In this document: positions 39,771-64,000 of the stretch, one piece after another
Numbering within the stretch: position 1 is the first letter of the stretch
How the letters are laid out: each line of letters starts with the position of its first letter
From: Marivirga sp.
GTDB taxonomy: Bacteria; Bacteroidota; Bacteroidia; Cytophagales; Cyclobacteriaceae
Assembly: GCF_035704835.1 (NCBI RefSeq)
Contig: NZ_DASSWQ010000014.1
Coordinates: 5,613 to 69,612 of the forward strand
Direction of reading: 5' to 3'
Length of the DNA: 64,000 nt
The notes under the pieces: generated by a model
Seen by the model: only the letters and a program-made list of their open reading frames with translations
What the model was told of the DNA's origin: nothing
Database searches by the model: none
Program-made: the position numbers and the translations under genes

Positions 39771-40304
39771 TTAATTCAATTCAATTTTATCGATTTCTAA
39801 TCGAAAATTCTCCTCCTTATTATTGCCAATTAAAAAGCGTACTTCCTGAATTTTTTCAGCAGGGAAATTTGGGATATCCAATTTTCGTCCATGATAAACT
39901 GGTTCCATTTCGCTTAGCGGAATCTCTACGGTTTCCCAATCTCCAGAAGTTTTAAATCCATATACATAGGATGCTCTCTCTTTTAAATTAGATTTCATTC
40001 TGAACTGATATTTCTTACCATCCCCTTTCAAAAAAATGATTGCTTTCGTATATCCTTTTATATCTTTGGTCGGAAAATGATATTGCAAAGAAGCAAATCC
40101 GCCATTGTTTTCCAGAGATACTGTTCCTGTAAAAATAGCATTTCCTTCTGCGCTACTTTCAAGATTACTGCTCGACCTCCCTCCCATCACCACATCATTT
40201 TCCACTTCCCAATTCGACCAGTCGCCTGTTGAACTAAAATCAAAGAGTAATAATTTGCTCATAAATAAGATTATTAGAAATACTAAGAATTGCTGCTGAA
40301 ACAT
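39771..40304 (-). CDS. CIA30/NDUFAF1-family carbohydrate-binding-like protein
   Basis: NDVVMGGRS, SLENNGGFAS, LKGDGKKY. Confidence 0.9.
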   Translation of the reverse strand: MFQQQFLVFLIILFMSKLLLFDFSSTGDWSNWEVENDVVMGGRSSSNLESSAEGNAIFTGTVSLENNGGFASLQYHFPTKDIKGYTKAIIFLKGDGKKYQFRMKSNLKERASYVYGFKTSGDWETVEIPLSEMEPVYHGRKLDIPNFPAEKIQEVRFLIGNNKEENFRLEIDKIELN

Positions 40305-40537
40305 AATACTTTAAGTTAAATAAATCAATTTTAACTTATTAACTTATGAATAGGCATTAGTTATAAAGCTGATGAGTTTTTAACCGAAGCCATGAGTTCT
40401 ATTTTTAAATTCTACAAGTTCAAAAAATCAGTGGTTTTTTGTGCTCAGAGTAAAATTTTTTAAAAAATTATCTGAGATCACATAATGCCAATAAGAGTGA
40501 GATACCATATAAGCTAAATGAAATGGAACTTCATGTA

Positions 40538-41365
40538 TTACACAATATCGGCCATTACTTTCTCTACTCTTTTGAAATAAAGAAGTCCTGTAATGAATAG
40601 AATAATGACAATGCTAAATGAAAAATAAGCAAAAATACTTGGTGGGTCTCCACCCAAAAGGCTCCATCTAAAGCCTTCCACTACTCCTGCCATTGGATTA
40701 GCATAATATATAAATGAGCCCCACTCAGGTAATCTATTGATGACATCCTTGGCTTGATAACCAACGGGAGTAGCATAAAGACCGAACTGAACTAAGAATG
40801 GTACCACATGCTGAAAATCTCGATAACGAATAGTCAAGGCACTCAACCAAATTCCTACTGCCAAAGCTGAAATAATAGTCAGAATGATAAATATGGGAAG
40901 ATAAATAATATTAGCTGACGGAATAAATCCGTAATAAACCATCAATATCACAACAAACAACATGGCTATACCGAAGTCTACAAATCCTACTAATGCCTTT
41001 GATAAAGGAATAACTAATCTGGGAAAATAGATTTTTTTTACCATCTCCTGTGCTCCAATAATAGAATTACCGGATTGATTTAACACAAAAGAAAAATAAG
41101 ACCAAGAGGCCATTCCGCAGACTGCAAAAAGCGGATAAGGAATACCATCTGTTCCTACTTCTGCTACTGCTCCAAAAACTACGGTGAAAATAATGAGAGT
41201 GGCCAAAGGTTGAATGAAAGCCCAGAGTAAGCCTAAAAACGTTTGCGCATAGCGTACACGTAAATCTCTATAAGCCAAAATATAGAACAAATCCTTATAG
41301 GCCCACAACTCCTTAAAATTAATGTGCCATTTAGGTTTGGAAGCGTCTACTACTAGTTTTTCCAT
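40538..41365 (-). CDS. ABC-2 (Wzm-type) polysaccharide transport permease
   Basis: RDLRVRYAQT.LG..WA, KIYFPRLVIP, RYRD, YATPV.Y, NPMAG.VEGFR. ATG at 41365. Confidence 0.9.
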   Translation of the reverse strand: MEKLVVDASKPKWHINFKELWAYKDLFYILAYRDLRVRYAQTFLGLLWAFIQPLATLIIFTVVFGAVAEVGTDGIPYPLFAVCGMASWSYFSFVLNQSGNSIIGAQEMVKKIYFPRLVIPLSKALVGFVDFGIAMLFVVILMVYYGFIPSANIIYLPIFIILTIISALAVGIWLSALTIRYRDFQHVVPFLVQFGLYATPVGYQAKDVINRLPEWGSFIYYANPMAGVVEGFRWSLLGGDPPSIFAYFSFSIVIILFITGLLYFKRVEKVMADIV

Positions 41366-41442
41366 AATCAATTCTTAATCTATATTCAGCTTCAAAAGAT
41401 GATTTAAACTCTTTTATGCGGAAGTTTTCATAATATCCAGGA

Positions 41443-41520: not shown

Positions 41521-41567
41521 AAAAAATGAGGATTAGGAATTTGAAAATTCAAACAACTAATCCTCAT
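41521..41567 (-). terminator. Terminator closing the STAND/T9SS operon
   Basis: 11-bp stem ATGAGGATTAG/CTAATCCTCAT with U6 on the minus strand, 30 nt after the stop. Confidence 0.7.
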
Positions 41568-41596: not shown

Positions 41597-44500
41597 TTAA
41601 TCAGAGACAACAAATTTCATGGTGCGATTTTCTCCATTTTCCCCAAAGATAATCAGATTATAAAGTCCAGTTTTTAGATCTCTGGTATCAATTTCATGTT
41701 CCGCTTCTCCCACTAATAAATCAAAGCTATGAATCTCTTTTCCGGTAACATCTATCACTTTTGCTTTTAATCTTTCTCCTAAAATAGCTCCATAACTAAT
41801 TTTAAGATAATCATAAGCAGGGTTAGGATAAAGCTGTATGTTTAGGTTATCTAGCCTATGCGTATTAGAAGTTACAGTTGGAAGCGTTAACAAAGGAACC
41901 TCTACTTCATAAGCTGATTGAATAATAGTGCCATTTTCCATATCCTGCAAGAATGCCACTATGGTGATTGCTTCTTCATCCTCTTCTTTCTGAGCAATAA
42001 AAGTGGTAGATAAAGTACCTTCGCCAGCGCTCGTTTCTAATGCGGAACCTTCATTGGTCGGTAACAAGGTTCTTAAAACATTATAATATGATGACATTTG
42101 CCCTTCTATATTCACTTCATTATGCAGTACCGCGACAAATAAACGAGTGGTTTCAGGCAGTTCTTCCAGTATATCGTAATCCACATCTATTGTTAATTCA
42201 TTTTCACTCGCAGAATTAACCGAAATGTCAAGGTTTGCACTGCTTGACCTTAATCTGGCACGACTTACCGCATTTCTTCCCGTATTATTTTCACTAAAAC
42301 TAAACTCACTATTTAGCACTCCATCAATGGCAAATTGATTATTTGCAGTATAGGCGTCATAAAAATATAAACGAGACAGCATGCTTGATGAATTGCGTTG
42401 GTATAAAGCATCATCTTCATTTATTCGATAGTTTATCCAGGCAAAGTTCCCAAAGGTTTCGAAAGTTTGTTTGATAGAATTCATCTCCACTGTATCATGT
42501 GGAGAGTTATCATCACCGAAATATTCTACCAACACATTTCTATTGAGGCTTTCAATCACAAAATTGTCAAAAGCAGCCCCATCCGGATTATTAAAATTAT
42601 CACCTCCATCACTAGCCCTAGACTTAAACTGGAACCTAAAAATAACATTCTCTCTTTGGTCAATAGGGATTTCCTCTAAGGCATGTTTGGCATTTACTGG
42701 TTCTATACTTTCAGAATCATTTAATAGAGACCACCCGTTTGCGCTAGAATTGTTACTTATAATATCCCCATTATTATCAATAAAAGTAGTTCCTGGTCGA
42801 GATTCAATATCTTCCAAATTATACCATTCCAAACCAGATGAAATGGCCCCTGACACATCTCCTAAAACTACCCAACGCTTTTCAGAATCTTCAATTCTTT
42901 TCCCATCAGTAGAATATTCCAAAATCAAGCCATCATTACCTGCAGCTATATCGAGCCATAAATCGAAACTCACCACTGGGCGTTCAATAGTCCTGATATC
43001 CATGGCTGGCGAATAAACATAAGACTCAATATTGGATTCATAAGAACCTGAAGCATTGGTAATCCATACCTCATCGCTAGATTCAAAAGTGGAAGTATCT
43101 CTAGGAACAGAAAAATCCCATAGCCTTACCGAATCGGTGTCATTTCGAGCAAACCCATCGCTCACCCAGCCTTCGCTTGAACCATCGAAACTATAAACAT
43201 ATCGGTTCGCAAGATTTGCTTCTGGTAAAATGACAATTTTCTCACTTACATTTGCTAAACAGCCATTTCTGGTTAAAATACTAAATTCAACCTCATATCG
43301 TCCAGCACCATAATTATTGAAATCTACTGCAACAGTAGTGTCATTTTCCACTGTAAAAGCTTCTGGCCCTAATTCAGTGTTATCACTTATTCTGGTGATA
43401 GTCCATTCAGTAGACTTTAATGCGGTTTGATTAGGATTGCCAGTAAAAATGATATCTTCATTACCAAAAGTAGATTTATTCCATCTAAAATCAGGATTAA
43501 TGATTCTTCTGTAAGTTACAACGGTTGGTGAGCTGACACAAGATGGGTAATCTTCCCCACTGCTGTTTTCATTCAATCGAAATACATAGAACCTTCTGGT
43601 ATTGCTATTAACAAATAAATCCTCACCTGGCGAAAAAGTAGTGCCTCTGCCGAGAATTGCATCTTGCTCTGTTGTAAAAACATCATTAGCTAGCCAAATT
43701 AATTCTTCATTTTCATTGCTACCATTATATCCTATAACCTCAGCATCCTCAACTTCTCCATCTTCAATCACACAAATATCTGAAGATTTTAAAGTTGGTG
43801 CATCAGGCTGTTTCCACACCACAAAATCATAAACCTTAGAATTAGTACATCCATTTTGATTGGTATAGGTATATTCTATTTCAATTTTGATTGAATCTTT
43901 ATTTTCATTAGCAAGATAATCTTGTAAAAGTGTTTGGTTAAATACAAACCCTTCGACATTATCACCTATTAAAAGACTATCAGGTAACCCTACTTCTGAA
44001 TTTAAAAGCTCAAAATTGAAAATATTAGTATTGGTACCAGAAACTATTGGCTCAAGTTCTAAAGGTTCATCAAAGGAACATAAACTAAATTCAAAACCCT
44101 CGTCTTCAAAATTTTCAAACCCTTCAATTTCCAGTTCTGGCAAAGGGTTTACCCTCACGGTTTGGTCTGCTACATTTTCCTGTACATTTTCAGGATTGCT
44201 TAAATCTACCGTAGAATATGAAATAGAAATTAAGCTAGGGTTTTCTGCATCTTGATTTTCCGCATAAGCAGTCGCAGGATTAAAAATTGCTGTTAAAGCC
44301 CGAATAGAATCCCCATCGACCACATCAATAATATATTCCAAATTTGAAATACCCGGACCATTAATATCTGTTACTTCAAAACCCTCAATAATGGCATCGT
44401 CCACTCTAATCTGAATGGAATCGTTCAATTGACAATATTGCACTTGATCCAAATCAGGGAAAATTCTTTCCGCATTGAATACATTAAATGATATAGATGT

Positions 44501-47500
44501 ATCTGCAACACACCCAAATTGATTGGTGTACCTAAAGAATATTTCATGGACATCATTCGGATCAGCAAGAACGGTTAAAGCTAATTGTCTGCTATCCAAA
44601 TAATAAGAACTATCACTATTTTGAACTACACCAGGACCAAAAAATTCAAAATTCTCTTGTCCTAAAATAGTTGAATTATCTTTTAGATTTGTCGTATCAG
44701 GACCACCTAATCCTCTAAGTAGAATCGGGTCTGCAGTATTAGATATAGTAGTAGATTCTTCGTAATCAATAATCGCAATGGGTTTTGGTTTTAGTGAAAT
44801 AAAGAAAGTATCTGGTTCGCTTACACAGCCACTGGATGCATCAATTTCTTCCACTACCAATATTTCGGTGGTTTCTGTTTCTACCTCCCTGAAGTTGATG
44901 AACACTAAGTTTCGGTTATCAACTTCGCCCTCAAATTTATTGCCATCGTCAGCATCCGTAGCATCCTCACCGACAAAATACCAATTAAAAGTATTGTTCG
45001 CATCATTCGGAATCATTCTATATCTAACTTCTTGCTCGCCTGAACAAACAATTTCAGAGAAATCAGATCTAGAGAGGACAGGAATATCGTTTATATTTAG
45101 AGTAACTGGCCTTGGTGCTGGTATATCCCCACAACCAACTCCATCAAAGAGTACTACTGGCTGAATAGTCAAGTTTGCCCGTCCACTATCAATTTCCTGG
45201 GGACTTGCTTTGTAGATCGGATTAAGCACATTTGAAGTCAAGGAATACTCCGTTTGATTTTCGTCATCTTTAAAACCCCAAGTACCGTCATAATTTGCCA
45301 GCTCGTTGGCCGTGTTATCAATTCTTTCCCATAAAACGGTAAGGCTATCAGATTCAATTCCGCCTGATACTGTACTATTCAATTGTGTTACAGCAAGTTC
45401 ATTTCCATTCTCGTCTGTATCTATACAAATCGAGACATTACTACTTGTATTCACCGTTAAGCTTTCTGAAAATCTGATAATAACTAAATCGCTTGGACCA
45501 TCACATGGATTCAATCCTCCTGGTTCATCTGAGGTTAATTTCAGCTGAATTTCACCACTTACCCCGTCTGCAAAGCTCGCGTAATATTTTACAGTGTCTG
45601 GTCTATCTGTTTGAACTGACTTTAAGTTGAAGTCAGGAGAAAAACCACCGCCATTCGTGCTTGGCCCTTGATCTATGGTCCAGGTCCCCTGTTCCACATC
45701 ACCTATAATAGAAGGACGGTTCGATACTAGATTTTCGTCTTCGAAATCTACAATATTAGTATTGGCACCACAGAGTTCTATCACTCCTATTTCATCCTCA
45801 TTCTCGGCAAATCCACCTGCATCCACTTTAGATCGAATGAATTTTGTAATTTCTAAATCTGTACCCAGATTGGCACTAGGAACTGTACAAATGTTTAACT
45901 CTTCATCTTCTAATGAAACGATAGTGATAGTGTTTTCACCATCATCAGGAGGAGTAACAAAAAATGTTGTACCGCTTACGTAGCCGGGTCGTATAACAGG
46001 GTCGTCAGAACCCACCTTATATTCCAATGTATAAACACCTGAACCTCCCACTACATTAACTGAAATTTCTACTTGATTTACATTTCCTAAGTCATCAAAG
46101 TCGCAAATACTACTTGAAGCCTGCTCCAATACCAATTGAGCACTGCTAGGCCCTACACTTATCTCCTCATCAGAGGTAGTACTCGCATCTGCTGTATTTC
46201 CCTTTTGCCCGCTTTGCTTGTCCAATGTAATCCGACCGGGAATTGTTCCTTCAGGTACGTCAAATGTGATGGTTTCATCATCTACGATTACAAAATCAGC
46301 TGTATTAAGGACAGTTCCTTCAGCACCATCAATATTGGTACGGATTCTTGTAACTCCAGTAAAATATTGCCCCTTTATAATAAATTGCCCCCCTACACAG
46401 GCACCGTCAATAGGGAAATCATCAATTCTTGGTGGGCCGAAAGTGGTGAATGACCAAATATTATCAGCATTAAATCCAGCAAATGGATTACCTGCCCTAT
46501 CTACCAGAGCTCCAGGATCAATTTGAATATAATATTCAGTAGAATCTTGCAATAGATTTTCAAATGAATCGAAGTCTAAAATATTGCTTGTATTGTTAGT
46601 AAAAGCTGTTCCACCATCCAATACAACCAGAACACTGGAGGTTTTCTTGTCTATAATGGTGATATTATTTGTTCCTTGGCCCGAAACTGGCTCATTCATT
46701 TCAATTTTGAAAGTCAAAGAATGAGAAACATTGAATTCACCATTGAATGGGGTAAATGGATCATTTGCTAATTCAGGATCTTCAGTATCAATTGTAATTT
46801 CTGTATTTCCATTTAAGGAATTAGCACTTCCTACAGCTGGTAAACCCAAGCTAGCAGAAATCCCAGCTAAATCTTCTATGGCTCCACTATTAAGATCAAT
46901 ACTGTTTATATCTACATATTCAAGCTCCGCTACATCCACTATGGTGGTGCCATTAGAGGCTTCTACAGTATAATTAAAAGTTAGGATTGTTGAATTAGAA
47001 CCACTTACATATTCAGCATTAGAACCAGTATTTAAAGAAAGTAATGGAGTTCCTGTAACTACAACTGGTTCATCAAATTCAATTGTAATGTCAATTTGAT
47101 CTCCTGCTGTAAAGAATCCTTGGTCTGGAACGGCTGTAACATTTAAAACATCTGCCGGATCGGAATCCACTTGAATATCAGCGTTATCTTGTAATCTATC
47201 CGGATCAGATGGAAGAATTATCTCTGCATCATTGCTTACTAAATCCCGGATATTACCACCATTCATATTGAATGCTGTAACATCTAAGTCTAGTGTGTTT
47301 TCACCTGAATTAACACCACCAACAGTGTAAACAAAATTTACTTCATTTCCATTTGTTACGTTTTGGTAATTGGCTTGTCCACCTGAGTTTAAATTTAATG
47401 TTGGAGTTCCACCTACGGTTACATCTTCATCAAAAACTAATTGGATATTGATATTGTCACCCGGACTATATAAGCCATTGGAACTTGTAGATACAATCTC

Positions 47501-50500
47501 AGTAATTCTTGGCTTTTGAGTATCAATTGTGAAAGTTTCAGAAGTATTAGTAATGGATGTATTTCCTACCACATCTGTTGCTCCTGAAACTTCGATCGTT
47601 ACATTCTGAACTTCCTCCTCAGTTAAATTATGGGTATAAGTAGCAATAAAAACTGTAGCTGAATTCCAATTAGCAGCATCCAAAATTAAATCATCTGACC
47701 CTTGCACATTCAAACTTGGAGTTGTGACTTGATCCATATCCTCATTATAAGTTGCAGTAAGAACCAATTGATTATTCGCACGAGTAATTTCAGTATTATC
47801 TAAATCAATTGTTACAGTTGGTGAGGTAGTATCAATTTCAATATCCGTATTATCGCTTAAAGAGCCCGCCCCAGCAGTTGCAGGAAGCACCAAATTAGCA
47901 TTAACACTTGCTAAATCAACTATAGAACCTCCATTCAATTCCAGGCTGTTGATATTGGCATATTCCAAATCCAAAACATCCACAATACTTCCACCTGCAG
48001 AAGCCACAGTATAAGTAAAAGTCAATTCAGTAGAATTTGATCCTGAGCTGTAATTAGCATAGGAACCAGTATTTAAAAGTAAGCGTGGAGTTCCACCCGT
48101 TTCGTCCACTACCACAGTCTCATTAAAAGTGACTATAATATCAATTACATCTCCTGCCTTAAATATGCCTGATGTTGGATTAGCTGTCACATTTGTCACA
48201 TCTGCTGGATCTGTATCGATAATAATGTTAGCATTATCTCCTAAGTTATTACCCCCAGGTAAATTCAATATGGATGGGTTTGCTTGTAAATCTAATACTA
48301 CATTTTCTGAAGGTGAGAAAGAGTTTACAGTTAAATCACCAGTATTTTCTCCAGAATTAACCGATCCAACTGTATAGGAGAAATTCATTTCATTTCCATT
48401 CGTGATATCCACATAAGTTGCAACTCCTGTTGAATTGAGATTTAAAGTAGGATTAGCACCAATTTTCTGTACATCTTCATCAAAAACAACTTTTATATCA
48501 ATGATATCTCCAGGACCATAAATTCCTGATGAAGTTGAAGTGATTACAGTTATACGCGGCTTTTGAGTATCAATATCAAATGAGGCAGAAGTATTGGTAG
48601 TTGCAATATTGCCCACTTCATCCGTTGCACCGGTAATTTCTATCGTAATATTAGATATTTCTTCTTCAGTTTGATCATGGGTAAAAGTTTCAACATAAGT
48701 TCGGTTATCTGACCAATTCCCCACATTATCTTTATCTAAGTTATTTGGCAGGTTAAAAGAATAGGCAGGATCTGAACTCATATCCATATCCTCATCATAC
48801 ACAGTTGTAACTGTTAAGACCAGATCATTCAAATCAACCATTGAAATATCTAAATCAATGGTGAACTCAGGACTTCTAGTATCAATCTCAATGTTTTTAT
48901 TGTCGCCTAAAGAATTACTGCTACCAATAGTTGGTAGTGTTTGATCAACTGGTACTGAAGCCGGATCGATGATACTTCCCCCGTTTAATTCTAGGCTGTT
49001 TATATCATTATATTCCAAGTCTGTAACATCGAATAACGTAACTCCATCTGAATCTTGCACCGTGTAATTGAAAATTAATTCTGTAGAATTTGAACCGCTT
49101 GTATATTCTGCATAATCCCCAGTGTTTAAAGCAATCCGTGGGGTATTAGTAACAGTAACTACCTCATCAAAAGTCACAACTATTTCAATATTGTCTCCTG
49201 CCTTATATTTGCCATCAACATTAGTAGAAGTAACATTTGTAATTACTGCTGGGCGAGTATCAATTACGATAGCCGCATTATCGCTTAATTGATTAGGTAC
49301 AACAGGCAAAGTCAATACCGATGGGTTGTCAACCAAATCCAATACTTCATTTTCCGATGTAGAAATAGAAGTAACATTTAAATCTAAGGTGTTTTCTCCT
49401 GAATTAACTGCTCCTATTGTATAGATGAAATTAAGTTCATTTCCGTTGGTAATATTATCAAAAGCAGCAGTAGCACCAGTATTTAAAGTTAAAGTGGGAG
49501 TCGTTCCTGTTTGTTGAATATCCTCATCAAAAACAACTTTTATATTTATTTGCTCACCTGGACCATAAGTACCGTCTGCAGTAGATGAAACTATTTCAGT
49601 AATTCTTGGACTTTGTGTGTCAATATTGAAAGTTTCCGAATCAGCAGTAACTGTGGTATTTCCAACCGAATCTGTAGCTCCAGTAATTTCAATAGTCACA
49701 TTATCAAATTCTTCCTCTACTGTTAAATCATGTTCAAATTCAGCTCGATATGTTTGATTGTTAGTCCAACCTCCTGATTGAAAACTAATATTACTACCAT
49801 TACTAAACGAAAAGCCAGGAGCGCTAAGTTGATCCATTACTTCATTGTAATTAATTATCAATGTGAATGTAGGGTTCACTTGGCTAACCGTATTAGGCGT
49901 TATGCTTGTGCTAGCGATTTCAGGACTTTGGGTATCAATATCAAAAGGACCGGAAGTATTGGTAACAGCCGTATTTCCAACTTCATCAGTGGCACCACTA
50001 ATTTCAATGGTAATTCCCGTTAATTCTTCCTCTGTTCCATTATGGGTAAAGGTTTCCACATAAGTTGTGTTATTCGTCCATGCCCCTACGTTATCTTGAA
50101 TTAAATTAGTTCCTTGACTTATTGCGTATGAAGGATCGGTAGTCATATCCATAGCCTCATCATAATTAGTCGTAACTGTTAAAGTTAGGTCATTAAGATC
50201 AACCATAACAATATCTAAATCAATGGTAAACTCTGGATCTCTAGTATCTATTTCAATGTCGGTATTATCACTTAATGAAGTGCCACTGCCAATAGTTGGC
50301 AATGTTTGATCCACAGGAACAGAAGCTGGATCAATAATACTTCCTCCATTCAGCTCTAGACTATTTACATCTTCATATTCTAAGTCCACAACATCAAATA
50401 AAGTAATGCCATCTGAATTTTGGACTGTATAATTGAAGGTTAATTCATTAGTACCAGAACCACCTGTATAATTCGCATAATCACCAGTATTTAAAGCAAT

Positions 50501-53500: not shown

Positions 53501-56500
53501 ATCCATCACGGTAATGAAGTTTGCTAAATCATCATTATCATTATTCACAGAAGAAATTGCTGAAGCAGCACCTACTAAAGTGAGTGTATTTGAAGCTTCA
53601 ACAGGATCAGTAGTAATATCTATTGAGACAGATCCAAAATCATAGCAATAAGTACCTGATTTGTAAGCATAAATATCAAAATAATATTGGGTACTTCCGC
53701 TTAGTTCAGTAATGGTAACACTTGTGCCTTCATTGGCATATACAATTTTATTTCCGCTGGTGCCATCACCATCAGCTGCTGCTAAAAAGCTAGATGTGGC
53801 AATATCCCCAGTTCCTCCATCTTCAAAATTATCACCATTATTAAATGTTAAATCTACAGCAGAACCTTCTTTTGCTACGATTAAGTATCTATCAGCACCT
53901 GTAACCGCTGTCCAACTTAAGTCCACCGATACTGCTGTTACATTTGCAGGCGCATTAAAAATGGCTTCTGACTCAGGCGGTTCACAAACCGTTGTTTCTG
54001 AAAGTGTAACTGCGGTAGTATTATAGCAGAAACCACCTCTAGTCGGGTTGTACTCATAAATATCGAAACTGTAAGCAGTATTTTCATCAAGTCCCGTAAT
54101 GCTTGTAGAAGTACCATTCCCGTCATAAACTGCAAAATTGCCAGTCCCTAATTCTTGTCCAGATCCAAACTGACTATTTTCATTATAATCAATATTAGAG
54201 CTTGGAGCTTGAGCAGAAGAACCAGACTCTCGAGCTAAGATCAACACATTCCCCCCGCCTTGAATTGTCCAAGTGAGTGCTATCTCATCAAATGCATTTA
54301 CAGTAATGGAAGTGTTATTTACTTCTGTTATGGCTGGATCACATAAAGTAGTTTCCATAATAGTTTCTCCTACATTCTCATAACAGAAACCATTATCATT
54401 GAACAGATAAACATCAATTGAATATTCTTGATAATCATCCAGTCCCGTTAAGGTAAAACTAGTACCAGTTCCTTCATAAACAACATAATTACCACTAGCT
54501 CCAAACTGATCACCTGAGCTAAATGCAGCATTTGCAGTATAATCCTGTCCGTCAGTAGGGGCCGTTTTTGTTGAAGTGCTTAATCGAGCTACCGCTAACA
54601 CATTTAACCCACTGGCATTAGTCCAACTAATGTCCATTTGATTTACGGCAACATTTGAAGTGGCTAAGTCCGCTACAGTTTCCGTTGGATCCACACATAA
54701 GGTAGTTCCTGATCTCAATGGAGGAGTGTCATTATTGTAATTGTAAGTTTCATCTACAGCAACACCTCCATCATCAAGATAAGTATATGGAAGTACTTTA
54801 AAAGTGTAATCAGTATCAGCATCTAGACCTGAAATATTAACTGTAGTTGCATTTTCATCATCAACATCCACATAAAATACCTCGCCTACACCTGTTGGGT
54901 AAGTTTGATTATCAGGATTTACTCCATTCTCCAAAAATGAATCATCTAGCTCCGAATTTGATTTTGTATATAAAACGAGATAACCTGCAGCTCCAGTAAC
55001 TGCAGTCCAGTTCACTGTTATTTCTGAATTTGAAATAACAGCAAGATTAAAAGTACCATCATCCGCAACATCAGCTCCCCCATCAGCAGGAGCTTGTAAA
55101 GTATAAAAATCAACATCAGGTTTATCCGTTATATTATATCCAATGGTTGCGTCTTCAGCAGCATCTTTATTATATGGAATAATTGAAAATTTATATCTAG
55201 TAGCAGCAAGTAAGCCTGTAACAGCCACTTCTGTTGCAGCAGCTTCTGTTATTTCAACATAACTAGGTAGGCCTGTCTGCACTGCAGGCAAAACACCATT
55301 TTCAATCGTTGATAAATTAATAATTCCAGGAGCAACATATTCCTCATAATAGATTAAAAACCCACCATCATCTGAAAAACCCGGAATATTAGTAGTGTAA
55401 TCATCTAATAAAAAAGTAAGGCTTTCTGCTGTTGCAGAATCTTTAACAAATCCAGTTACAGGGTCGGGAGGTAATGTTGCGCTCGTAAACACCGCTTCTC
55501 TTTTTGTGTTGCTGGCTGTATTATAGTTATAGGTTTCAGGCACAGGAATGCCCCCGTCTGTAGCATAGGAGTATGGGATAATTCTAAAACTATATTCTGT
55601 TTTGGGATTCAAGCCTGTTATTTCAGCTTCTAGGGTAGATCCTCCATCTACATATTGAAAACCTGTTGCTTGACCGAAATCCCCTGCATCAGAATGAACT
55701 ACACCATCGGTAACACCATTCCCGTCAGGATCATTATTTCCAGTTCTATATAAAATTAAATAACCATTTGCACCCGTGGATTCATCATAACTTAGTGTGA
55801 TTGAACCATCTGTTTTACTTTCATAATTTAAGTTAGCTATGTCGTCAGATGGCTGTGTTTGTAATGTCCAGTGAGTGGCGGTAGGAGCATCACTTTTTCT
55901 ATAATGAAAAGTTTCCTCATTTATACCATCAGAATTATAAATTGGCAATATGAAAGAATATTGTGTTCCAGGATTTAATCCCGTTGCACTAATCGCAGTT
56001 GCACCATCAATTGTTTCGAATACAAAATTATCCCCGGCAATCTGTCCGTTTGGCAAATCTCCATTACTTAAATTTGTTAAATCTTCTGGTGTATCCCCAG
56101 TTTTAAAATACAAGACATATCCACCATTGTCAGGAAATGTATAACCACCAAAAGTAAATGCAATACTACTAGTTGAATTATCATCAAATTGAAAATTATT
56201 TACTGGCGAAGTAGGCTGATCTGCTAATGTATAAGCTGAAATCAACTCAATTCCAGGAGTTTTATAATTATATGTAGTAGGCTCATCAGCCGAATGTGAA
56301 AATGCAATAATTCTAAAACTGTATTCAGTAGCTTCAGTCAAACCAGTAATTGTAGGATTTGTTGAAGCTGAGCTTTGTACAAATTGATAACCATCAGCGT
56401 CTGTAAATTCGCTTCCATCTGTACTTTTAGTTCCATCAACCACTCCCGTGGCATCAGGTGCAGTATTGCCAGTAGCATATAAAATTAAATACCCATCCGC

Positions 56501-57676: not shown

Positions 57677-57691
57677 ATTATAATCTCCTTA

Positions 57692-58882
57692 TCAATCTTC
57701 TAATTCTCCAAAACCATTGGTTTTAATCAATAGTAATGTGTTCTCAATTCCTATAACAGTAGAGCCAATAGCGAAAATCCTATCATTGACCATAACCGCA
57801 TCATGTAAAACCTCATTTTCATTACTTCCGAAGGATTTGGTAAATACTTCCCCTCCGTTTGGTCCCCTTCTCGACAGAAAAAAATCTGTTTGTTCATTAG
57901 CTCCTGCCCGTGAAATTTCGGATGAACCACTTATTAAATAACCATCTTCAATTTTTTTTACGCCTCTAAGCTCATCATTACCCTCGCCACCGATAAAAAT
58001 CGGAGAAGCAGAAAATGCCTGATACATAAAAACATCAATTTGACTATTTACACTATGCTCGCCAAAAAGCATAATATTGCCTTCGGGTGAAGCCAATAAT
58101 TGTTTTGTAAAAATATTATTAGACCCAGGGAAATTAAGGGGTTCCGCATCTTCGATTTGCTGCATATTTATGCCGTTACTTCTTACTAAAACAGAATTTC
58201 CTGAATTGTAGACCCAATTTAATCTTCCATTACTATCTTTATACAATGCAGTGGCAGGCAGTGCTTTGGCTTTATGGGTTTTAAAAAAAGTCTCAATTGT
58301 CAAGTTATCTACACTTAATTCGCCATAAAAGGTGGAGTCTTCAGCATCGTCCATTTGCTCCGAACCTCCAAATAGAATTCGGGATGACGCCTCATCATAA
58401 TTCAAACCTGTTAGGCTATAATTATCTGCACCTGAAGTATAGATCTGACTATTTATGGAGTCTAATGAAGAACTGACCGTCATAAAAAACAATGCTGTAT
58501 TACCAACGGTTTGATTTCCTATTGTACCTCCAATTACTATATTGTCATTTGGCAATACTAATACCTGGCTTGCTCTCCAACTTTGATTTTGTGGATAGTA
58601 GCGTTCGGAATTAGAAACAGGTAATTCCCCATTAGCATCTACCCTTACTAGTCTAACCCTTTCAGTGATGGTACCAGAAATTGGATCGTTTATAGTGCTG
58701 TTAGAAACAATTAGTAAATTTCCATCAGAGAGCGCCTCAATTTTTAATGGGTTATCGGTCCCTCTTCCTTTAATGATTTTAATAAATGCATTCTGTTGGG
58801 CAGGAGCTATTCCTTCCTCCGTATTACATGCAAAAACAGTCATTATTATTAATGTCCATATCGTGAACTTCAAATATTTCAT
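57692..58882 (-). CDS. Lipoprotein, probable beta-propeller
   Basis: Lipobox VFAC then NTEEG; repeats such as NDNIVIGG, DGYLISG, DRIFAIG and GGxGNDE / GSNENE. Confidence 0.7.
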   Translation of the reverse strand: MKYLKFTIWTLIIMTVFACNTEEGIAPAQQNAFIKIIKGRGTDNPLKIEALSDGNLLIVSNSTINDPISGTITERVRLVRVDANGELPVSNSERYYPQNQSWRASQVLVLPNDNIVIGGTIGNQTVGNTALFFMTVSSSLDSINSQIYTSGADNYSLTGLNYDEASSRILFGGSEQMDDAEDSTFYGELSVDNLTIETFFKTHKAKALPATALYKDSNGRLNWVYNSGNSVLVRSNGINMQQIEDAEPLNFPGSNNIFTKQLLASPEGNIMLFGEHSVNSQIDVFMYQAFSASPIFIGGEGNDELRGVKKIEDGYLISGSSEISRAGANEQTDFFLSRRGPNGGEVFTKSFGSNENEVLHDAVMVNDRIFAIGSTVIGIENTLLLIKTNGFGELED

Positions 58883-59910
58883 TTTTTCAACTCAGGGTTA
58901 AATCTTGGGAAACGAAAACCTAATCTCAATATGAAAGCATGTCCTTTATATTGATTATCTGCGTAGGCAGCATCTTTTAAAATTAATTTCAATTCCTCTG
59001 TTTCTACATTTTCATTCTTTTCTTCTATAAATCGATGTTGATATAATGCCTCCACCGTGATATAATTTCTACCCAATACCTTGAAATTTCCTCTTACTCC
59101 TATAATCGCGCTTACGTTCAATAAATTTCTGTAATTAATCATGTCAAGATCAATGATTTCTGTTCCAACACCTCGAACAGAGAGTTCTGACGATAGTAAA
59201 TAATGAAATGAAGGCCCTCCAGTGGCTTCAAGTAAGAATTGATTGAAGAAAGGGAGTTTATAATTTAATAAAAATGGGAGTTCGAGCCATTGTTGCATTT
59301 CAGTAATTTCATGGTCCCCACTTGAATTTCCTTCTGCTGTCACGGTTGCCCTTTTCAACAATGTGGTTCTATAATTATAATGAATTTCGGCATTAGCACT
59401 AAACTCATCATTAATAGGATATTGAAAAAATAAACCAACTCCTATTCCTAAGGGTGGATCATAAGTACCTGAACTGGACAAATTATAGTTGTCATTATTT
59501 TCGAGTATTTGTATAAAATTAAAGCTCCCTGTAAATTTTAAGCCATAAAAAAACTTCGCATCTGTTTCAAAGTTTTCGGCTAAAATTACCAGTTCTGTAG
59601 GATCAGAATCTAAGTCTATTTGATATTCGGGGTCAATTTTAAGCAATCTCAAGAAGGATTCTTCTGCTTTATTCTGTTCTTCATTAAAAAGATAAGACAA
59701 GGTAACCAACCTCAATGCTTCTACTTTTTCTTCATCTGTAAATCCATTATCAATACATTTCAATAGTAGCTTTGGAAGCTCATTAAGTTTTCCTTCATCA
59801 TAAAAATTTCGGGCTTCTCGCAAGTTTTGCACACAAGAGCTTTGTGCAAAAGTGGTATTGGCAAAAATAAAGCATCCCACAACTATTAATAAGATTCTAA
59901 TTTGCTGCAT
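58879..59910 (-). CDS. Outer-membrane protein: N-terminal TPR-like helices plus PorT/OMP beta-barrel
   Basis: Signal peptide; ARNFYDEG...AEESFLRLLKIDPEY TPR; WLELPFLLNYK, GGPSFHYLL and LRLGFRF barrel strands. Confidence 0.75.
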   Translation of the reverse strand: MQQIRILLIVVGCFIFANTTFAQSSCVQNLREARNFYDEGKLNELPKLLLKCIDNGFTDEEKVEALRLVTLSYLFNEEQNKAEESFLRLLKIDPEYQIDLDSDPTELVILAENFETDAKFFYGLKFTGSFNFIQILENNDNYNLSSSGTYDPPLGIGVGLFFQYPINDEFSANAEIHYNYRTTLLKRATVTAEGNSSGDHEITEMQQWLELPFLLNYKLPFFNQFLLEATGGPSFHYLLSSELSVRGVGTEIIDLDMINYRNLLNVSAIIGVRGNFKVLGRNYITVEALYQHRFIEEKNENVETEELKLILKDAAYADNQYKGHAFILRLGFRFPRFNPELKK

Positions 59911-62900
59911 CGGATAGTTTTTCTAAATTTTCACACGTTTTTTCATACTCTAAATCAGCTCCCACATAGGTTGCCCATTCGTTTTTAGTCATATTTCGGT
60001 CTAATTCATCACAAAGCAAGCCACCCATTTTATCAATTGAATAAGGCCAAATATGAACTTTCCCATCCTCTGAAGCGGAGAAAATCCATTCACCAGAAGT
60101 ACTAAAATCGGTTGACCAAACCCAGTCTCCATGGTCGGATAACACGATTGGTGCCTGTATGATTTGAGATAAATTCCATATCCTTACAGACCTATCTTTA
60201 CTTGCTGTAAGCATTGTTGCCCCATTATCGCTGATCTTGATATCATCTATTCCTCCATTGTGCCCTGTCAAAGAATTAGGATTGGTAAAATCGTTGTCTG
60301 TAAATAATTTTACTTCTCCATTAATATTACCCAAGGCTAGAAAGTTAAACTTTGAAGTGATGGCACTAAGTGCGACTTTACTTCGATAGATTACAGTATC
60401 ATTTTCTCCAGAATCATCTATCCTTATCAGTTCTCCACTATCTGCCGCTAACCAGATTACATTTCTATTTTCATCAATTGTAAAATCATTAATTTTGACG
60501 TCTGATTGATATATTTTTTTGGATTGATTTGCTTCAATAGTTTTGATTGATTTACCACCGTCATCCAAAACCCATAGCTTATTATCAGCCCATTTCATTT
60601 TTACAAATGTTCCACTAACCCCTTCTATTGCTGTTGGTTGCGGATTTCTATTTTCTAAATCATAACGTTCTATAATGGATTTACCGGCACTAGTGATAAA
60701 TTGACCTGCAGCATAAATTTGATTCTTCTCTTTATCAAAAATCATAGATTTTACCACTCTTCTATCTCTTGTAGGAGCAATTGTATCTGCCACCCATTGA
60801 TTATTAACTCTATTCCATTTTAAAATACTGCCTTTGGATCCAGCTGAGAAGAACTCATTGTCTGAACTTCCACTCATTACTACTTTAGCCGATTTATCAT
60901 GAGCATTTAATTTCTGAGTTAATGGATGTTCAAATTCTTTTAAGGCAAAATACAAGCCTTCATAAATTTCAGGATCGTATTCGTAGCTATTATATCGCTC
61001 ATCAAATTCAAAAGCTTGTTGCGCCAATAGACCTTTTAGCTGCGGATCATTTATTTGAGTTGATTTCACCGCCATGGCATTCGCAATGGCCAGATATCTC
61101 AATTGGTCGGCTCTAGCTTTTTGTTGTTCTGCTCTGTCTCTTTCTAAATCCGCTTGTTGTTTTGCCTTGGTAGCTTTAATTGCCTCTTCACTTGCCACAC
61201 CCTCCGCTTTCACTGCTGCAATTCTACTTATTTCAGCCTGTTCAGCTGCTTGAATTGCTTTTTGTTCTTCTAATTCGGCTCTTCTTGCATTTTCTTCAGC
61301 CTCCTTTTGAGCTGCGATTGCACGTTTTTCTTGTTCAGTTGCAATATCTTTCTGCTGTTCAGCAACTAAAGTTTGCTGTTCGGCTTCTAGTCTTGCTTTT
61401 TCTGCTTCATTCTTTTGCTCTTCAGCCCTTGTCTGCTGAATAAATGCATAAATCAAAAATAAAATGGAGATGACTGTGGCTCCACTCATAATCAAAGTTG
61501 TTAATCTTGCAGTTCGCAATCTTCTCTTCTGCTGCAATTCTTTGGCTCTTTGCTCTATTTCATATTCTTCTGCAGAATGTTCTAAGAAGGAGATAGTCCG
61601 CTCATAGGCCGGATGATGGCGTTGTCCCCAAATTAATGTAGGATTATGTTTTTCTTTCCAGTTTAAAGCAAGTTGTAAATCTGGTGGACGCCACAAACTT
61701 GTTTTTCCTTGTTGAAACATATCAGCCGCTTCAGCCAGCCTTTTGTACATGGCCACGGCATCTGCTTCATCATTCACCCAGTTTTTTAGTCTGTTCCAAA
61801 TTCTCATAATGCTTTCATGAGAAATATCAATAATGGAATGACTGTGAATAGGAATACCGTATTGCGGAGTTAATAAGGACCGACTCGGATCGCGGAATTT
61901 TTCAATTACTTGAATAATTTGCTCCTCTGAAGTATCCGCGATAGCGGCTATTTCATTTAATTGAGTTGGTCTTCGAATTCCATAACTTCCGCCCCCTCTT
62001 TTTTCCGTAATGGCTTTAAATAAAAATTCACAAATTCTTTGCTGCTCATCATCTAGTTCTTCAAAAGCTTCATTAGCATGCATAGATAAAGCCTCCGCCA
62101 TGGTACCGATTGCCTCATAATGCTTAATATCTAATAACTCATTTTCAAAATCTTTAAAATTGCTCCAATAATCCCAAGTTCGCATAAGGGCATGCTGTAA
62201 AATGGGAAGCTGATCGGGATTATCTCCTAAGTCATTTAAAAGTTGTTGGGTTAATCTTGGAGCAATTTCAGCATTTCCAACAGCGACCGGTCCTGTGATA
62301 GCGCGCCTTTTCTGCTCACGCGTCATTTGCGGAATTAAATATTGGCTTTCATTGATTTGGCGAGTCAATTCTGGAAACTGAGAACATTCCCCAATAAAAT
62401 CTGAGCGCATGGTAATGGCCACATATATTGGCGCATCTGCATAATTAATAGCCTCCATCAGAAGATTAATGAAAGCTAGCGTTTCGTTTATGGTTTGAAT
62501 ATTGGAAGAATCTTTGAAACGAAATAACTCCTCAAATTGATCAACTAAAATGAGATAGTTTTTTTCCTCATCACCTTTAAATTGCATTATGGTTTCCACC
62601 AAACCAACAGAGGAACTTCTGAGAAGAGACGATATAATGGTTTTCCTGATTTGCTTGTCTTCATCTGACAGATGTTCATCTACCAAATCGGTTTTCAATA
62701 AGGCTTGCGCCAAATTATCAATTGGAGCTGCGCCTGGCCTAGTCACCACTACTTCCCATTCTGTTGATCGGCCGGTGAGAAATCCTCCATATAATATGGG
62801 TAAAACCCCACAGTAAATAAATGAAGATTTACCACTTCCAGATGGACCTATAACACCCACAAAGCGATGTTTCGATAACTTCAAAAGTACCTCATCGCTT

Positions 62901-63028
62901 TGACCTTCTCTGCCAAAAAATAAATGGCTTTCCTCAATTTTGAAAGGACGCAATCCTGGAAAAGGATTGTTTTTCTTCCCGTATTGAGTTTGAATAGGTT
63001 CTGTTATGGTGATTTTTTCCTCCTTCAT
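59897..63028 (-). CDS. nSTAND1-type P-loop NTPase with TM helix, long coiled coil and C-terminal WD40 propeller
   Basis: NPFPGLRPF..FFGRE, Walker A GPSGSGKSS, Walker B LVDQFEELF, GDNPDQLPILQHAL; TM at ~61440-61505; WD repeats (ASKDRSVRIW, SASEDGKVHIW). Confidence 0.92.
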   Translation of the reverse strand: MKEEKITITEPIQTQYGKKNNPFPGLRPFKIEESHLFFGREGQSDEVLLKLSKHRFVGVIGPSGSGKSSFIYCGVLPILYGGFLTGRSTEWEVVVTRPGAAPIDNLAQALLKTDLVDEHLSDEDKQIRKTIISSLLRSSSVGLVETIMQFKGDEEKNYLILVDQFEELFRFKDSSNIQTINETLAFINLLMEAINYADAPIYVAITMRSDFIGECSQFPELTRQINESQYLIPQMTREQKRRAITGPVAVGNAEIAPRLTQQLLNDLGDNPDQLPILQHALMRTWDYWSNFKDFENELLDIKHYEAIGTMAEALSMHANEAFEELDDEQQRICEFLFKAITEKRGGGSYGIRRPTQLNEIAAIADTSEEQIIQVIEKFRDPSRSLLTPQYGIPIHSHSIIDISHESIMRIWNRLKNWVNDEADAVAMYKRLAEAADMFQQGKTSLWRPPDLQLALNWKEKHNPTLIWGQRHHPAYERTISFLEHSAEEYEIEQRAKELQQKRRLRTARLTTLIMSGATVISILFLIYAFIQQTRAEEQKNEAEKARLEAEQQTLVAEQQKDIATEQEKRAIAAQKEAEENARRAELEEQKAIQAAEQAEISRIAAVKAEGVASEEAIKATKAKQQADLERDRAEQQKARADQLRYLAIANAMAVKSTQINDPQLKGLLAQQAFEFDERYNSYEYDPEIYEGLYFALKEFEHPLTQKLNAHDKSAKVVMSGSSDNEFFSAGSKGSILKWNRVNNQWVADTIAPTRDRRVVKSMIFDKEKNQIYAAGQFITSAGKSIIERYDLENRNPQPTAIEGVSGTFVKMKWADNKLWVLDDGGKSIKTIEANQSKKIYQSDVKINDFTIDENRNVIWLAADSGELIRIDDSGENDTVIYRSKVALSAITSKFNFLALGNINGEVKLFTDNDFTNPNSLTGHNGGIDDIKISDNGATMLTASKDRSVRIWNLSQIIQAPIVLSDHGDWVWSTDFSTSGEWIFSASEDGKVHIWPYSIDKMGGLLCDELDRNMTKNEWATYVGADLEYEKTCENLEKLSDAAN

Positions 63029-63029
63029 A

Positions 63030-63998
63030 TTAGCTTTCTCTTGCCACTTTTACTTGGCTATTTTCATAAGCCAGTTCAATAGTCTTAATAAAATTAATTA
63101 CATTTTTGGAATCTCCGCTAACATCAACTTCCACTTCATAACGGCTAAGGTATTCATTTTCAATACCTTTAGCCTTTTCGGATTTGAACAACTTTCCTAA
63201 AATGGGTTTAGAACGTCCGAAACCTGGCGCTTTTAATAAATCCAAAAGTTTCATGTAAACCCACTGATTATTTACCTTTTCCTGAAATACAATAGCCGCA
63301 TCCATTTGCTTCAGACAATCGATGTGCTTATTACGTAGCTCCATCAAATCTCCTTTATTTTCTAAAGTGAGAAGAGTTACATTTTGAGCTTGAATTTCGT
63401 CTACCAAAATGGAGGCTGCTTCTCGGTCTATTTCATCATAAATTAAGTAGATGTTCGCCCTCTCTTGGGACGCATCTAAATATAAATTTCTGAGCTTTTT
63501 ATTTAAGCCTTTTTCCATCAGTTCTTCCCAGAGTGTATTCTTAAAATCTTCTAGAGAAGTTTGTAATACTTCTGCTCCTCTAGAGGATTTATCATCTCTT
63601 TTAATATTGTGAATAAAAGATTTTTGCTTTTCGCTAGCATATTTTAGTGAGGGACTAATCCAAATCAACCTACTAAAATCTGAGGCGCTTGACTCTGAAT
63701 AATCAGCAGCCAAACTATTTTGAATATCCATAACTGAGCTTTCCGAATCTTTTGGAATTGCTCCATAAGATGCTCCTATCATATGCACAGAAAATTGACA
63801 CTTTTCTAAATCTGCTTGAATTGATTTCTTTAAGCCTGAAAAGCTTTGAGGTAGTAAGCTTTTAGGATACACATCATATCCATGTCTAATTAATTCTCTT
63901 TTGATAATATTTCTTGCACCTGATAAATCTTGACCCGTTTCTGCCAAATAAACAGTCTTTCTTCCATGTGATCGAGTATTTTTCTCTGTTTGATTCAT
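63030..63998 (-). CDS. Protein with tandem TIR/DUF4062-like Rossmann domains; may extend beyond the window edge
   Basis: KTVYLAET...SVHMIGASYG (domain 1); NIYLIYD...DAAIVF...QWVYMKL (domain 2). The upstream codon is cut by the window end, so the start is unverified. Confidence 0.65.
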   Translation of the reverse strand: MNQTEKNTRSHGRKTVYLAETGQDLSGARNIIKRELIRHGYDVYPKSLLPQSFSGLKKSIQADLEKCQFSVHMIGASYGAIPKDSESSVMDIQNSLAADYSESSASDFSRLIWISPSLKYASEKQKSFIHNIKRDDKSSRGAEVLQTSLEDFKNTLWEELMEKGLNKKLRNLYLDASQERANIYLIYDEIDREAASILVDEIQAQNVTLLTLENKGDLMELRNKHIDCLKQMDAAIVFQEKVNNQWVYMKLLDLLKAPGFGRSKPILGKLFKSEKAKGIENEYLSRYEVEVDVSGDSKNVINFIKTIELAYENSQVKVARES

Positions 63999-64000
63999 TT

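Follow-up and report, generated by a model that had tools for sequence, protein, structure and literature searches.

A putative six-gene operon of Marivirga, centred on a membrane-spanning STAND NTPase, that looks like an uncharacterised trans-envelope signalling device

The current understanding of STAND/NLR switches is that they sense in the cytosol and set off death or defence. Here we analyse a stretch of 64,000 nt from the genome of a Marivirga sp. (contig C40:5613-69612, hereafter the window), in which a STAND NTPase is predicted to span the inner membrane and is encoded among proteins of the outer membrane and the cell surface. Its gene is the third of six, all on the minus strand: gene 1 encodes an NTT-HEAT-cNBD protein, gene 2 a triple TIR-like protein (TIR3), gene 3 the STAND protein, gene 4 an outer-membrane beta-barrel protein, gene 5 a lipoprotein and gene 6 a giant predicted type IX secretion system (T9SS) cargo. 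The window would hold the distal five-sixths of this vertically inherited operon, which looks like an uncharacterised trans-envelope signalling device and not like a phage defence system. We think the region is best read, with confidence that falls somewhat short of even, as an envelope receptor that is inherited vertically, signals from outside to inside and is made of immune-type parts.

In the FecA-FecR-FecI system, a periplasmic N-terminal extension of an outer-membrane protein is read by a single-pass inner-membrane protein, and the signal is relayed to the cytoplasm. A likeness to such transducers is found in variants of the present locus, where TonB-dependent receptors next to a STAND gene carry, at the position of the signalling domain, a relative of the N-terminal domain of the gene 4 protein (barN). 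The resemblance concerns function alone. No STN, anti-sigma or ECF sigma domain turned up when the operon proteins and the receptor at one such variant locus (L089) were scanned with Pfam, and the transducer here differs in being a predicted NTPase switch whose output, as far as visible, is not transcriptional. In the LapD-LapG-LapA system, a giant adhesin is controlled via catalytically dead c-di-GMP domains. Like it, the operon brings together a giant repeat protein of the surface, an anchor in the outer membrane and a receptor in the inner membrane with apparently dead nucleotide-enzyme domains, but there is no homology between the two, Lap secretion is of type I whereas secretion here would be of type IX, and no periplasmic protease is encoded here.

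Other relatives are closer in domain content. Three 2026 preprints showed that DUF4062 (NIR) is a TIR-like NADase and depends on one Glu: KpSwz is inactivated by E97A, and PsAvs2 with E108Q neither defends nor depletes NAD+. The vocabulary of DUF4062, STAND NTPase and WD40 is common to the present operon, to Avs/NLR-like STAND proteins and to the DUF4062-NACHT-WD40 proteins (human TEP1, NWD1 and NWD2; bioRxiv 10.64898/2026.09.04.749371, 10.64898/2026.05.01.722283). Here, however, the parts are split over several genes, the NTPase and the sensor are placed on opposite sides of the inner membrane, the DUF4062 Glu is a Gln, the same change as PsAvs2 E108Q, and the distribution is vertical and not in defence islands. 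Gene 1 has the three-domain architecture of the NTT-HEAT-cNBD fusion family reported by Major, Embley and Williams in 2017 (PMC5381601), for which no function was given. That paper does not mention a linkage to STAND or TIR genes, whereas the protein heads an operon of such genes here, and the Arg position of its cNBD cassette is unconserved.

The nearest precedent is the catalogue of Kaur, Burroughs, Iyer and Aravind (eLife 2021, PMC8195603), which in section 8 of Figure 2 source data 1 lists nSTAND1-centred neighbourhoods. A STAND protein in that table belongs to the same orthologous group as P0039, itself 55% identical to the protein of the window, and the first three genes, together with the transmembrane (TM) segment, are therefore already tabulated. 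The rows of that section end at the STAND gene, and the paper is framed around conflict systems; in its text, as far as searched, the barrel, lipoprotein and giant T9SS genes are not described, and neither are the NTT identity of the 12-TM domain, the loss of catalytic residues, the stalk as a ruler or the vertical inheritance. Full-text literature searches, including searches for Hat/HatR and for STAND in combination with periplasmic, WD40 and T9SS, found no description of the whole operon. A preliminary description of the window, made from its letters, had stated that no characterised system of this composition was known to it; this is true, but it was overstated, as the first three genes were already in the 2021 supplement.

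The gene layout itself is compact. Five open reading frames (ORFs) of the window, at 41597-57676, 57692-58882, 58879-59910, 59897-63028 and 63030-63998, are tightly packed; the first four of these encode the giant protein (5359 aa), the lipoprotein (396 aa), the barrel protein (343 aa) and the STAND protein (1043 aa). Their coordinates confirm the co-directional genes and the junctions reported in the preliminary description: from gene 2 to gene 6, a gap of 1 nt, overlaps of 14 nt and 4 nt, and a gap of 15 nt. Gene 2, with 322 aa inside the window, is truncated by the window edge: in the genome it encodes 485 aa (C40:68642-70099, window-equivalent 63030-64487) and has an additional N-terminal TIR-like domain. 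Upstream of it lies a gene for a protein of 1046 aa (C40:70096-73236) that overlaps the TIR3 gene by 4 nt, and the operon therefore has six genes; the five first described are real, but the count of five was wrong. In related loci, a distance of 62-1300 nt (mostly ~180-450 nt) separates gene 1 from its upstream neighbour, unless that neighbour is divergent, and the operon would accordingly start at gene 1. At the other end, the proposed terminator was borne out by folding (Table 1), although a simple consensus terminator scan had missed this hairpin. The 15-nt gap between the lipoprotein and giant genes (57677-57691) contains no terminator.

To compare loci, we used the best 80 with enough flanking sequence, out of at least 559 relatives in species-representative genomes. 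Conservation of the gene order in relatives had been proposed as a check of the preliminary description, and the same order (NTT-HEAT-cNBD, TIR3, STAND, barrel, an ORF of ~400-450 aa and a giant ORF) was found in all 80 loci, which span Marivirga, Fulvivirga, Cyclobacteriaceae, Ohtaekwangia, Chryseolinea and others. Three loci of a divergent subtype, with STAND proteins 42-45% identical, contain the same six genes. Median consecutive gaps from gene 1 to gene 6 are 12, 5, 4, -1 and 24.5 nt, and a co-directional ORF of at least 1000 aa is the next gene after the lipoprotein gene in 58 of the 59 loci with at least 3.5 kb of flank. An arrangement found in 80 of 80 loci, and twice in this genome as described below, is far beyond chance. 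Within the GTDB family of the organism, 153 of 251 genomes, representing 87 of 132 genera, have a match to the TIR3 profile, as against only 9 of 401 genomes in a sample across the phylum. STAND relatives number in the thousands and are of near-constant length; the closest are those of Marivirga species (78-80% identity), followed by Fulvivirga and Cyclobacteriaceae proteins (53-57%) annotated as "Hat/HatR" or "nSTAND1 domain-containing". For the orthologues of the six genes, public annotations read 'hypothetical', 'DUF4062 domain-containing', 'porin family protein', the name of a barrel orthologue, and 'AAA family ATP:ADP antiporter'.

Conservation is distributed very unevenly along the six proteins. 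In median identity between Marivirga and other genera, the STAND NTPase stands at 73%, and the other parts of the STAND protein at 47% (periplasmic helical region), 30.5% (WD40) and 28% (stalk). The corresponding values for gene 1 are 43% for NTT, 46% for HEAT and 28% for cNBD, and those for TIR3 are 37%, 56.5% and 38% for domains 1, 2 and 3. Towards the outside, the N-terminal domain of the barrel protein has 43.5%, its barrel 20.5%, the lipoprotein as a whole 17.7% and the pre-CTD module, the conserved region that precedes the C-terminal domain (CTD) of the giant protein, 26.5%.

The genome contains a second, paralogous set of seven genes on contig C9 (L085, C9:1-18227). It includes a TM-HEAT-cNBD protein with a non-NTT membrane domain (hhalign probability 99.2) and an additional gene for a Reg_prop/Y_Y_Y-TM-SpoIIE (PP2C) phosphatase, and continues with TIR3, STAND (40% identical), barrel, lipoprotein and giant genes. 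The last of these is split by the assembly and resumes on C82:2-8353, where it ends in a T9SS CTD; C82 begins with the same 30 residues that close the giant fragment of C9. A seven-gene locus of this type is also found in another Marivirga. In a census of the genome with hidden Markov models (HMMs), TIR3, the NTPase of this clade, barN and HEAT-cNBD each occur in exactly two copies, all of them in the two operons. The lipoprotein family has the two operon copies and one weak third match elsewhere, the NTT domain has a single copy, and the pre-CTD module, besides its place in the giant genes of both operons, has a third copy, on contig C36. No other argument from within the genome is as strong as this strict co-duplication, which suggests that the parts work together with cognate specificity.

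The STAND protein, recognised as STAND-WD40 in the preliminary description, combines an nSTAND1 NTPase with a WD40 propeller, and it has a single TM helix between them (Table 1). The PF20703 match covers residues 22-442 and model positions 1-375 of 379. Among 80 sequences, the residues of the Walker A motif GPSGSGKSS are 97-100% conserved and those of the Walker B motif LILVDQFEE 96-100%, with one position at 66%; the NTPase looks active by these motifs. The predicted TM helix puts NTPase and WD40 on opposite sides of the inner membrane, and in every nSTAND1 protein of the clade examined, stand-alone ones included, a lone TM helix likewise lies near residue 500-520, with the C-terminus outside the cytoplasm. 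Directly after the helix follows a periplasmic coiled-coil stalk. Ala is at least 90% conserved at each seventh residue over ~17 heptads, while identity in the stalk is otherwise 28%. Of 80 orthologues, 62 have a stalk of 114 aa and 18 one of 121 aa; the longer form has exactly one heptad more. The stalk could thus serve as a periplasm-scale ruler of about 17-18 nm, at 0.15 nm per residue.

TIR3 is represented in its AlphaFold2 (AF2) model (pLDDT 82) by three alpha/beta domains at residues 1-165, 178-325 and 344-484, the first being the TIR-like domain encoded past the window edge. The middle domain matches Pfam DUF4062 (PF13271) at 28.9 bits (27.4 for the full-length protein; cut-off 24.7). 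Local Foldseek matches are to SPARTA TIR-APAZ and nucleoside 2-deoxyribosyltransferase (NDT), with a probability of 0.98 and weak E-values, and the domain-1 profile weakly matches the TIR domains of L6, TLR6, SNC1 and Cat1 (E 0.002-0.07). The top Foldseek matches of the whole model are generic multi-Rossmann proteins, and only the local TIR and NDT matches are informative. A 5'-nucleotidase, the best PDB match of the full-length profile, was set aside as a spurious match to domain 3.

All three TIR-like domains are predicted to lack the catalytic Glu. Six canonical DUF4062 domains from other Bacteroidia share the motif S-x-T-x-x-E-Y, where TIR3 reads S251-V-M-D-I-Q256-N. Of 78 members of the TIR3 family, 74 have Gln here, 3 have Glu and 1 has Phe, and stand-alone TIR3 relatives have Gln as well. 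In domain 3, Lys413 stands at the corresponding TIR catalytic position in 77 of 78. Domain 1 reads SGSCLDRVE; its Trp is gone, so that the motif S-x-W-C-x-x-E is not matched. A domain-1 profile that included paralogues biased the catalytic column, and we therefore used an unbiased one, in which the conserved Cys78 is the Cys of 'WCxxE' and the catalytic position falls on residue 81. This residue varies, whereas D80 (73/78) and E83 (77/78) on either side of it are conserved, E83 almost without exception. A manual alignment had suggested E83 as the catalytic Glu of an active domain 1; this was ruled out by the unbiased profile and the stand-alone relatives. The divergent six-gene subtype lacks any acidic residue at the domain-1 catalytic position. 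By contrast, 'S-E-W-C-x-x-E' is kept in stand-alone TIR3+STAND pairs, in a variant from another taxonomic order and in a distant variant, and the WCxxE of domain 1 is lost only in envelope operons. This pattern suggests that the envelope operons specifically lost TIR catalytic potential. The recruitment of a TIR effector, which the preliminary description had drawn on and which would be of the kind seen in Avs or Thoeris, finds no support in view of the Gln at the DUF4062 position, the Lys of domain 3 and the lost WCxxE of domain 1. The DUF4062 domain is nevertheless the best-conserved part of the protein, and we read TIR3 as a putative adaptor or ligand-binding scaffold.

Gene 1 lies beyond the window. 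Its product joins a 12-TM domain of the NTT family, which is ATP/ADP-translocase-like, to HEAT repeats and to a domain resembling cNMP-binding domains. Searched against the PDB, a profile built from 28 orthologues matches NTT ADP/ATP carriers at residues 124-452 (E 1.3e-15), HEAT/alphaRep repeats at residues 513-670 and cNMP-binding domains at residues 919-1050 (PKG, E about 1e-10; PycTIR, 3e-6). Consistent with this, the AF2 model (pLDDT 77.5) contains 12 long helices, an alpha-solenoid and a C-terminal beta-barrel, and its top Foldseek matches are AtNTT1 and Chlamydia NTT1 at a TM-score of 0.73.

Genes 4 to 6 would carry the system to the cell surface. The preliminary description had called the gene 4 product a TPR-barrel protein: the barrel is real, with a PF13568 match in 23 of 26 orthologues, whereas the TPR label is not, as no TPR Pfam model matched barN in the same 26 orthologues at E <= 0.01. 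The only hint for barN is a weak, sub-threshold TssQ-like match (E 8e-6), and the barrel profile has no sequence relative in the PDB. In the gene 5 product, the lipobox Cys that marks a lipoprotein, as first described, is present, and it is invariant in an alignment of 28 sequences. With a strict pattern, a lipobox-like motif was detected in 52 of the 75 members of the family, and the six residues after the Cys include one or more Asp or Glu in 47 of the 50 orthologues scored. The family profile matches the CylK beta-propeller in five stretches (E 8e-22), and 3 of 28 family sequences contain a DUF5122 propeller.

The giant protein begins with the hydrophobic N-terminus MKKFLLIFFSASLLLGF and is a predicted T9SS type A cargo. 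Its CTD scores above the curated cut-off, in agreement with the preliminary description, its body contains FN3 domains, and a T9SS CTD is present in all five giant orthologues tested. Complete orthologues have 1126-2504 aa against 5359 aa here. Few of those from other genera align with the body, and only the last ~560 aa (the module of ~450 aa and the CTD) align across genera. Within the genus, the giant protein has 30% local identity, as against 78% for the STAND protein. The pre-CTD module of giant orthologues gives weak Omp28-like and M36-C-terminal-like matches. Its third genomic copy (C36:75443-78961; HMM E 4e-31) belongs to a T9SS protein of 1172 aa, outside the operons and among unrelated-looking genes.

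Table 1. Positions in the window of the predicted features of genes 2 to 6 and of the closing terminator.
Feature	Position	Strand	Evidence
TIR3 gene (gene 2), 3' two-thirds	63030..64000 (gene to window-equivalent 64487)	minus	ORF and genome extension
TIR3 domain 2 (DUF4062/NIR)	63513-63956	minus	Gln256 codon 63720-63722 at catalytic-Glu position
TIR3 domain 3	63033-63458	minus	Lys413 at Glu position
Gene 3, nSTAND1 NTPase and helical module, aa 1-500, predicted cytoplasmic	61529..63028	minus	PF20703 E 2.7e-97
Gene 3, predicted single TM helix, aa 507-531, after basic patch KRRLRTAR	61436..61510	minus	Sole Kyte-Doolittle window >1.5
Gene 3, predicted periplasmic coiled-coil stalk, aa 532-645, Ala/Glu/Gln/Lys/Arg-rich	61094..61435	minus	Heptad Ala pattern
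Gene 3, predicted periplasmic helical region and WD40 beta-propeller, aa 646-1043 and stop	59897..61093	minus	WD40/beta-propeller Pfam matches
Gene 4, signal peptide, ending ...FAQ	59842-59910	minus	N-terminus of barrel gene
Gene 4, barN, N-terminal helical domain, ~95 aa, two Cys, predicted periplasmic	59566..59841	minus	Candidate docking domain
Gene 4, outer-membrane beta-barrel	58879..59553	minus	PF13568 OMP_b-brl_2 E 7.6e-10
Gene 5, lipoprotein, predicted beta-propeller fold, Cys19 then NTEEG	57692..58882	minus	Lipobox Cys and profile
Gene 6, signal peptide and variable body, aa 1 to ~4829, FN3/Ig-like repeats	43190..57676	minus	FN3, Pur_ac_phosph_N matches
Gene 6, conserved pre-CTD module, aa ~4830-5280	41837..43189	minus	Aligns in 34-37 other-genus loci
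Gene 6, T9SS type A CTD, aa 5282-5357 and stop	41597..41833	minus	PF18962 E 1.2e-10; TIGR04183 29.8 bits, cut-off 23
Intrinsic-terminator-like hairpin and T-run closing the operon	41521-41567	minus	-24.8 kcal/mol, z = -4.9, 0/200 shuffles fold as well

Variant loci bear on how these parts may be connected. At the locus L089, in a genome of another taxonomic order, the genes are arranged as TIR3, then a STAND-TM-coil-WD40 gene, then a TonB-dependent receptor of 862 aa (Plug and barrel), with an MFS-HEAT-cNBD-like protein further downstream. Residues 24-115 of this receptor are homologous to barN (HMM E 5e-11 at Z = 1e6; BLAST 36% over 107 aa). A STAND gene followed by a barN-bearing TonB-dependent receptor was found in two further families, one of them with an NTT-HEAT-cNBD gene downstream; in two of these variants, the barN extension of the STAND-adjacent receptor sits before the plug domain. 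In every examined locus of the clade with a TM-coil-WD40 STAND gene, a barN-bearing outer-membrane protein is next, while stand-alone TIR3+STAND pairs have no barN neighbour. The receptor-like signalling reading of the preliminary description gains partial support, from barN on a TonB-dependent receptor after a STAND gene in another taxonomic order. In the phylum sample, barN itself occurs in 26 of 401 genomes. In a distant family (L152, G128 C1:5117500-5136000), the two proteins encoded next to a barN protein of 513 aa, downstream of it and each of ~1070 aa, match the lipoprotein-propeller profile; no STAND gene is nearby, and a barN-propeller pairing may therefore exist independently of the NTPase.

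Two-gene TIR3+STAND modules in which the canonical TIR motif persists appear to be the source of the six-gene system. Two tandem stand-alone TIR3+STAND(TM) pairs with SEWCxxE kept (L101, G504 C1:3631760-3639960) are candidates for the ancestral, possibly defence-type form; the periplasmic C-terminal regions of their STAND proteins have ~280 aa and were assigned no type. A paralogous pair at three further loci (L086-L088; G359, G111 and G311) comprises a 532-aa protein with the canonical N-terminal TIR motif YDIFVSYRHNDN, a DUF4062-like domain and a third domain, with another nSTAND1 NTPase directly after it.

Products of the operon are predicted in every layer of the envelope, and the chain from cytoplasm to surface drawn in the preliminary description is consistent with every topology feature that could be checked. 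That the six-gene operon encodes one envelope-spanning receptor complex, signalling from outside to inside, is our tentative proposal, a call that is nearly balanced and leans slightly to the doubtful side. In such a complex, the giant protein, held at the surface via its conserved C-terminal module, would contact the propeller lipoprotein and the barrel, and the WD40 propeller, kept about 17-18 nm from the inner membrane by the stalk, would read the periplasmic N-terminal domain of the barrel protein. As other STAND proteins do, the cytoplasmic NTPase would respond to engagement of the repeat sensor by exchanging its nucleotide and forming oligomers. The Glu-less TIR3 would then act as an oligomerisation-dependent adaptor and not as an NADase, linking the NTPase with the NTT-like protein through the HEAT-cNBD arm of the latter, and the output would be altered nucleotide transport across the inner membrane. 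The fuller claim that this is the first outside-in NLR-like bacterial receptor, in which a TIR+STAND pair was exapted, its catalytic residues were lost and the NTPase came to gate a nucleotide transporter, we regard as rather doubtful. On that reading, the fast divergence of the surface component beside an almost unchanging switch would allow the input to be contact with other cells or with surfaces, as in the recognition of kin or prey, rather than a small molecule.

Several observations weigh against a receptor of this kind. The outside-in direction would follow only from the general STAND paradigm. Two links at the surface are assumed. Type A CTD cargo can be released rather than retained, and surface retention of the giant protein is an assumption; an acidic export signal after the lipobox Cys is linked to surface exposure in Bacteroidota, and the exposure assumed for the lipoprotein relies on this motif. 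At the cytoplasmic end, the cNBD of gene 1 looks degenerate. Its phosphate-binding cassette (PBC) retains the Gly-Glu/Asp pair, but with the register set by hand, Lys stands at the Arg position here, and V/A/K/Q/R in orthologues, so that the protein departs from the canonical cassette G-E-L-A ... P-R-[ST]-A with its conserved Arg. BarN has no STAND neighbour in 9 of 16 fetched loci, and its role as a dedicated STAND-docking domain is for this reason only partly supported. Finally, second copies within the family (L147, L148) lack TIR3 and keep NTT-HEAT-cNBD, STAND, barrel, lipoprotein and giant genes; the adaptor step is therefore not universal.

The signal could also run in the opposite direction, from inside to outside, to control or tether a giant adhesin. 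The NTPase would set the state of the WD40 propeller, which would hold or release the complex of barrel, lipoprotein and giant protein, and the degenerate TIR-like and cNMP-like domains would act as nucleotide sensors. Such a device would conceptually resemble LapD/LapG/LapA, or a TolA-like tether powered by NTP in place of the proton-motive force. The anatomy of the operon fits this too. Degenerate yet highly conserved nucleotide-type domains, such as DUF4062 at 56.5% identity, are typical of sensors, a mechanical tether would be well served by a rigid stalk whose length comes in fixed steps, the FN3 and Ig repeats make the giant protein adhesin-like, and the PP2C phosphatase with a periplasmic sensor that is inserted in the C9 paralogue suggests a cytoplasmic regulatory input. 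However, characterised STAND proteins (e.g. Avs, APAF-1) use their C-terminal repeats as input and not as output, the operon encodes no LapG-like protease or release factor, and the PBC Arg of the cNBD is not conserved. We therefore consider inside-out control unlikely, if worth keeping in view.

An anti-phage or conflict system that senses at the surface or in the periplasm, akin to abortive infection by NLR/Avs-like proteins, would have as its effector either the loss of nucleotides via the NTT-like transporter or a residual TIR activity. The domains nSTAND1, TIR and DUF4062 (DrHyd/NIR) are hallmarks of conflict systems, and stand-alone TIR3+STAND pairs, sometimes in tandem duplicates, have an intact TIR motif; the fast divergence of the giant surface protein relative to STAND and the patchy distribution in the family (153 of 251 genomes) would also fit. 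Against this stand the catalytic residues gone from all three TIR-like domains and a gene order and flanks conserved across genera, with an NTPase that is 73% identical, unlike fast-evolving immune sensors. PADLOC models searched against the operon proteins gave only P-loop-level noise, and no relatives were found on IMG/VR viral contigs or on PLSDB plasmids. The upstream neighbours recur across many loci, that of M. tractuosa being annotated as a serine hydrolase, and no defence gene was noticed there. The marks of a cytosolic NLR/Avs-type immune sensor, namely a sensor in the same compartment, a defence or mobile context and a match to a defence model, are all lacking. The conflict system offered as an option in the preliminary description is thus disfavoured by vertical inheritance, by NTPase identity and by the searches for defence models and for viral or plasmid copies, and we hold it to be distinctly improbable. 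That the giant gene, and perhaps the lipoprotein gene, are mere neighbours of a four-gene STAND module without functional link seems to us very improbable. Variants without the giant gene exist (L089, L137, L142) and the lipoprotein-giant gap is the widest of the five in the median, but a giant gene is next in nearly every locus with enough flank, the giants of both paralogous operons have the same pre-CTD module and the gap here is 15 nt without a terminator.

The surroundings of the operon in this genome have features of their own. Downstream of the terminator, two minus-strand ORFs (177 and 277 aa) occupy 39771-41371. About 230 nt upstream of gene 1, and just before the end of the contig, lies a transposase split into two minus-strand ORFs of 282 and 151 aa (C40:73470-74886, window-equivalent 67858-69274), so that in this strain the promoter region native to the operon may have been disrupted or exchanged. 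At the equivalent position, M. tractuosa has the gene annotated as serine hydrolase; in Marivirga loci, it is 320-450 nt from the operon.

Read as an outside-in receptor, the operon would present a STAND switch that spans the inner membrane, is conserved like a housekeeping gene and has no enzymatic effectors, and that has fixed links to outer-membrane proteins, to a giant protein secreted to the surface and to a nucleotide transporter. If this is true, NLR-like machinery can signal across the Gram-negative envelope, the widespread NTT-HEAT-cNBD transporters would have a first functional context, and the operon would be an example of immune modules domesticated for physiology. The model gives predictions that can be tested in culturable, gliding marine bacteria.

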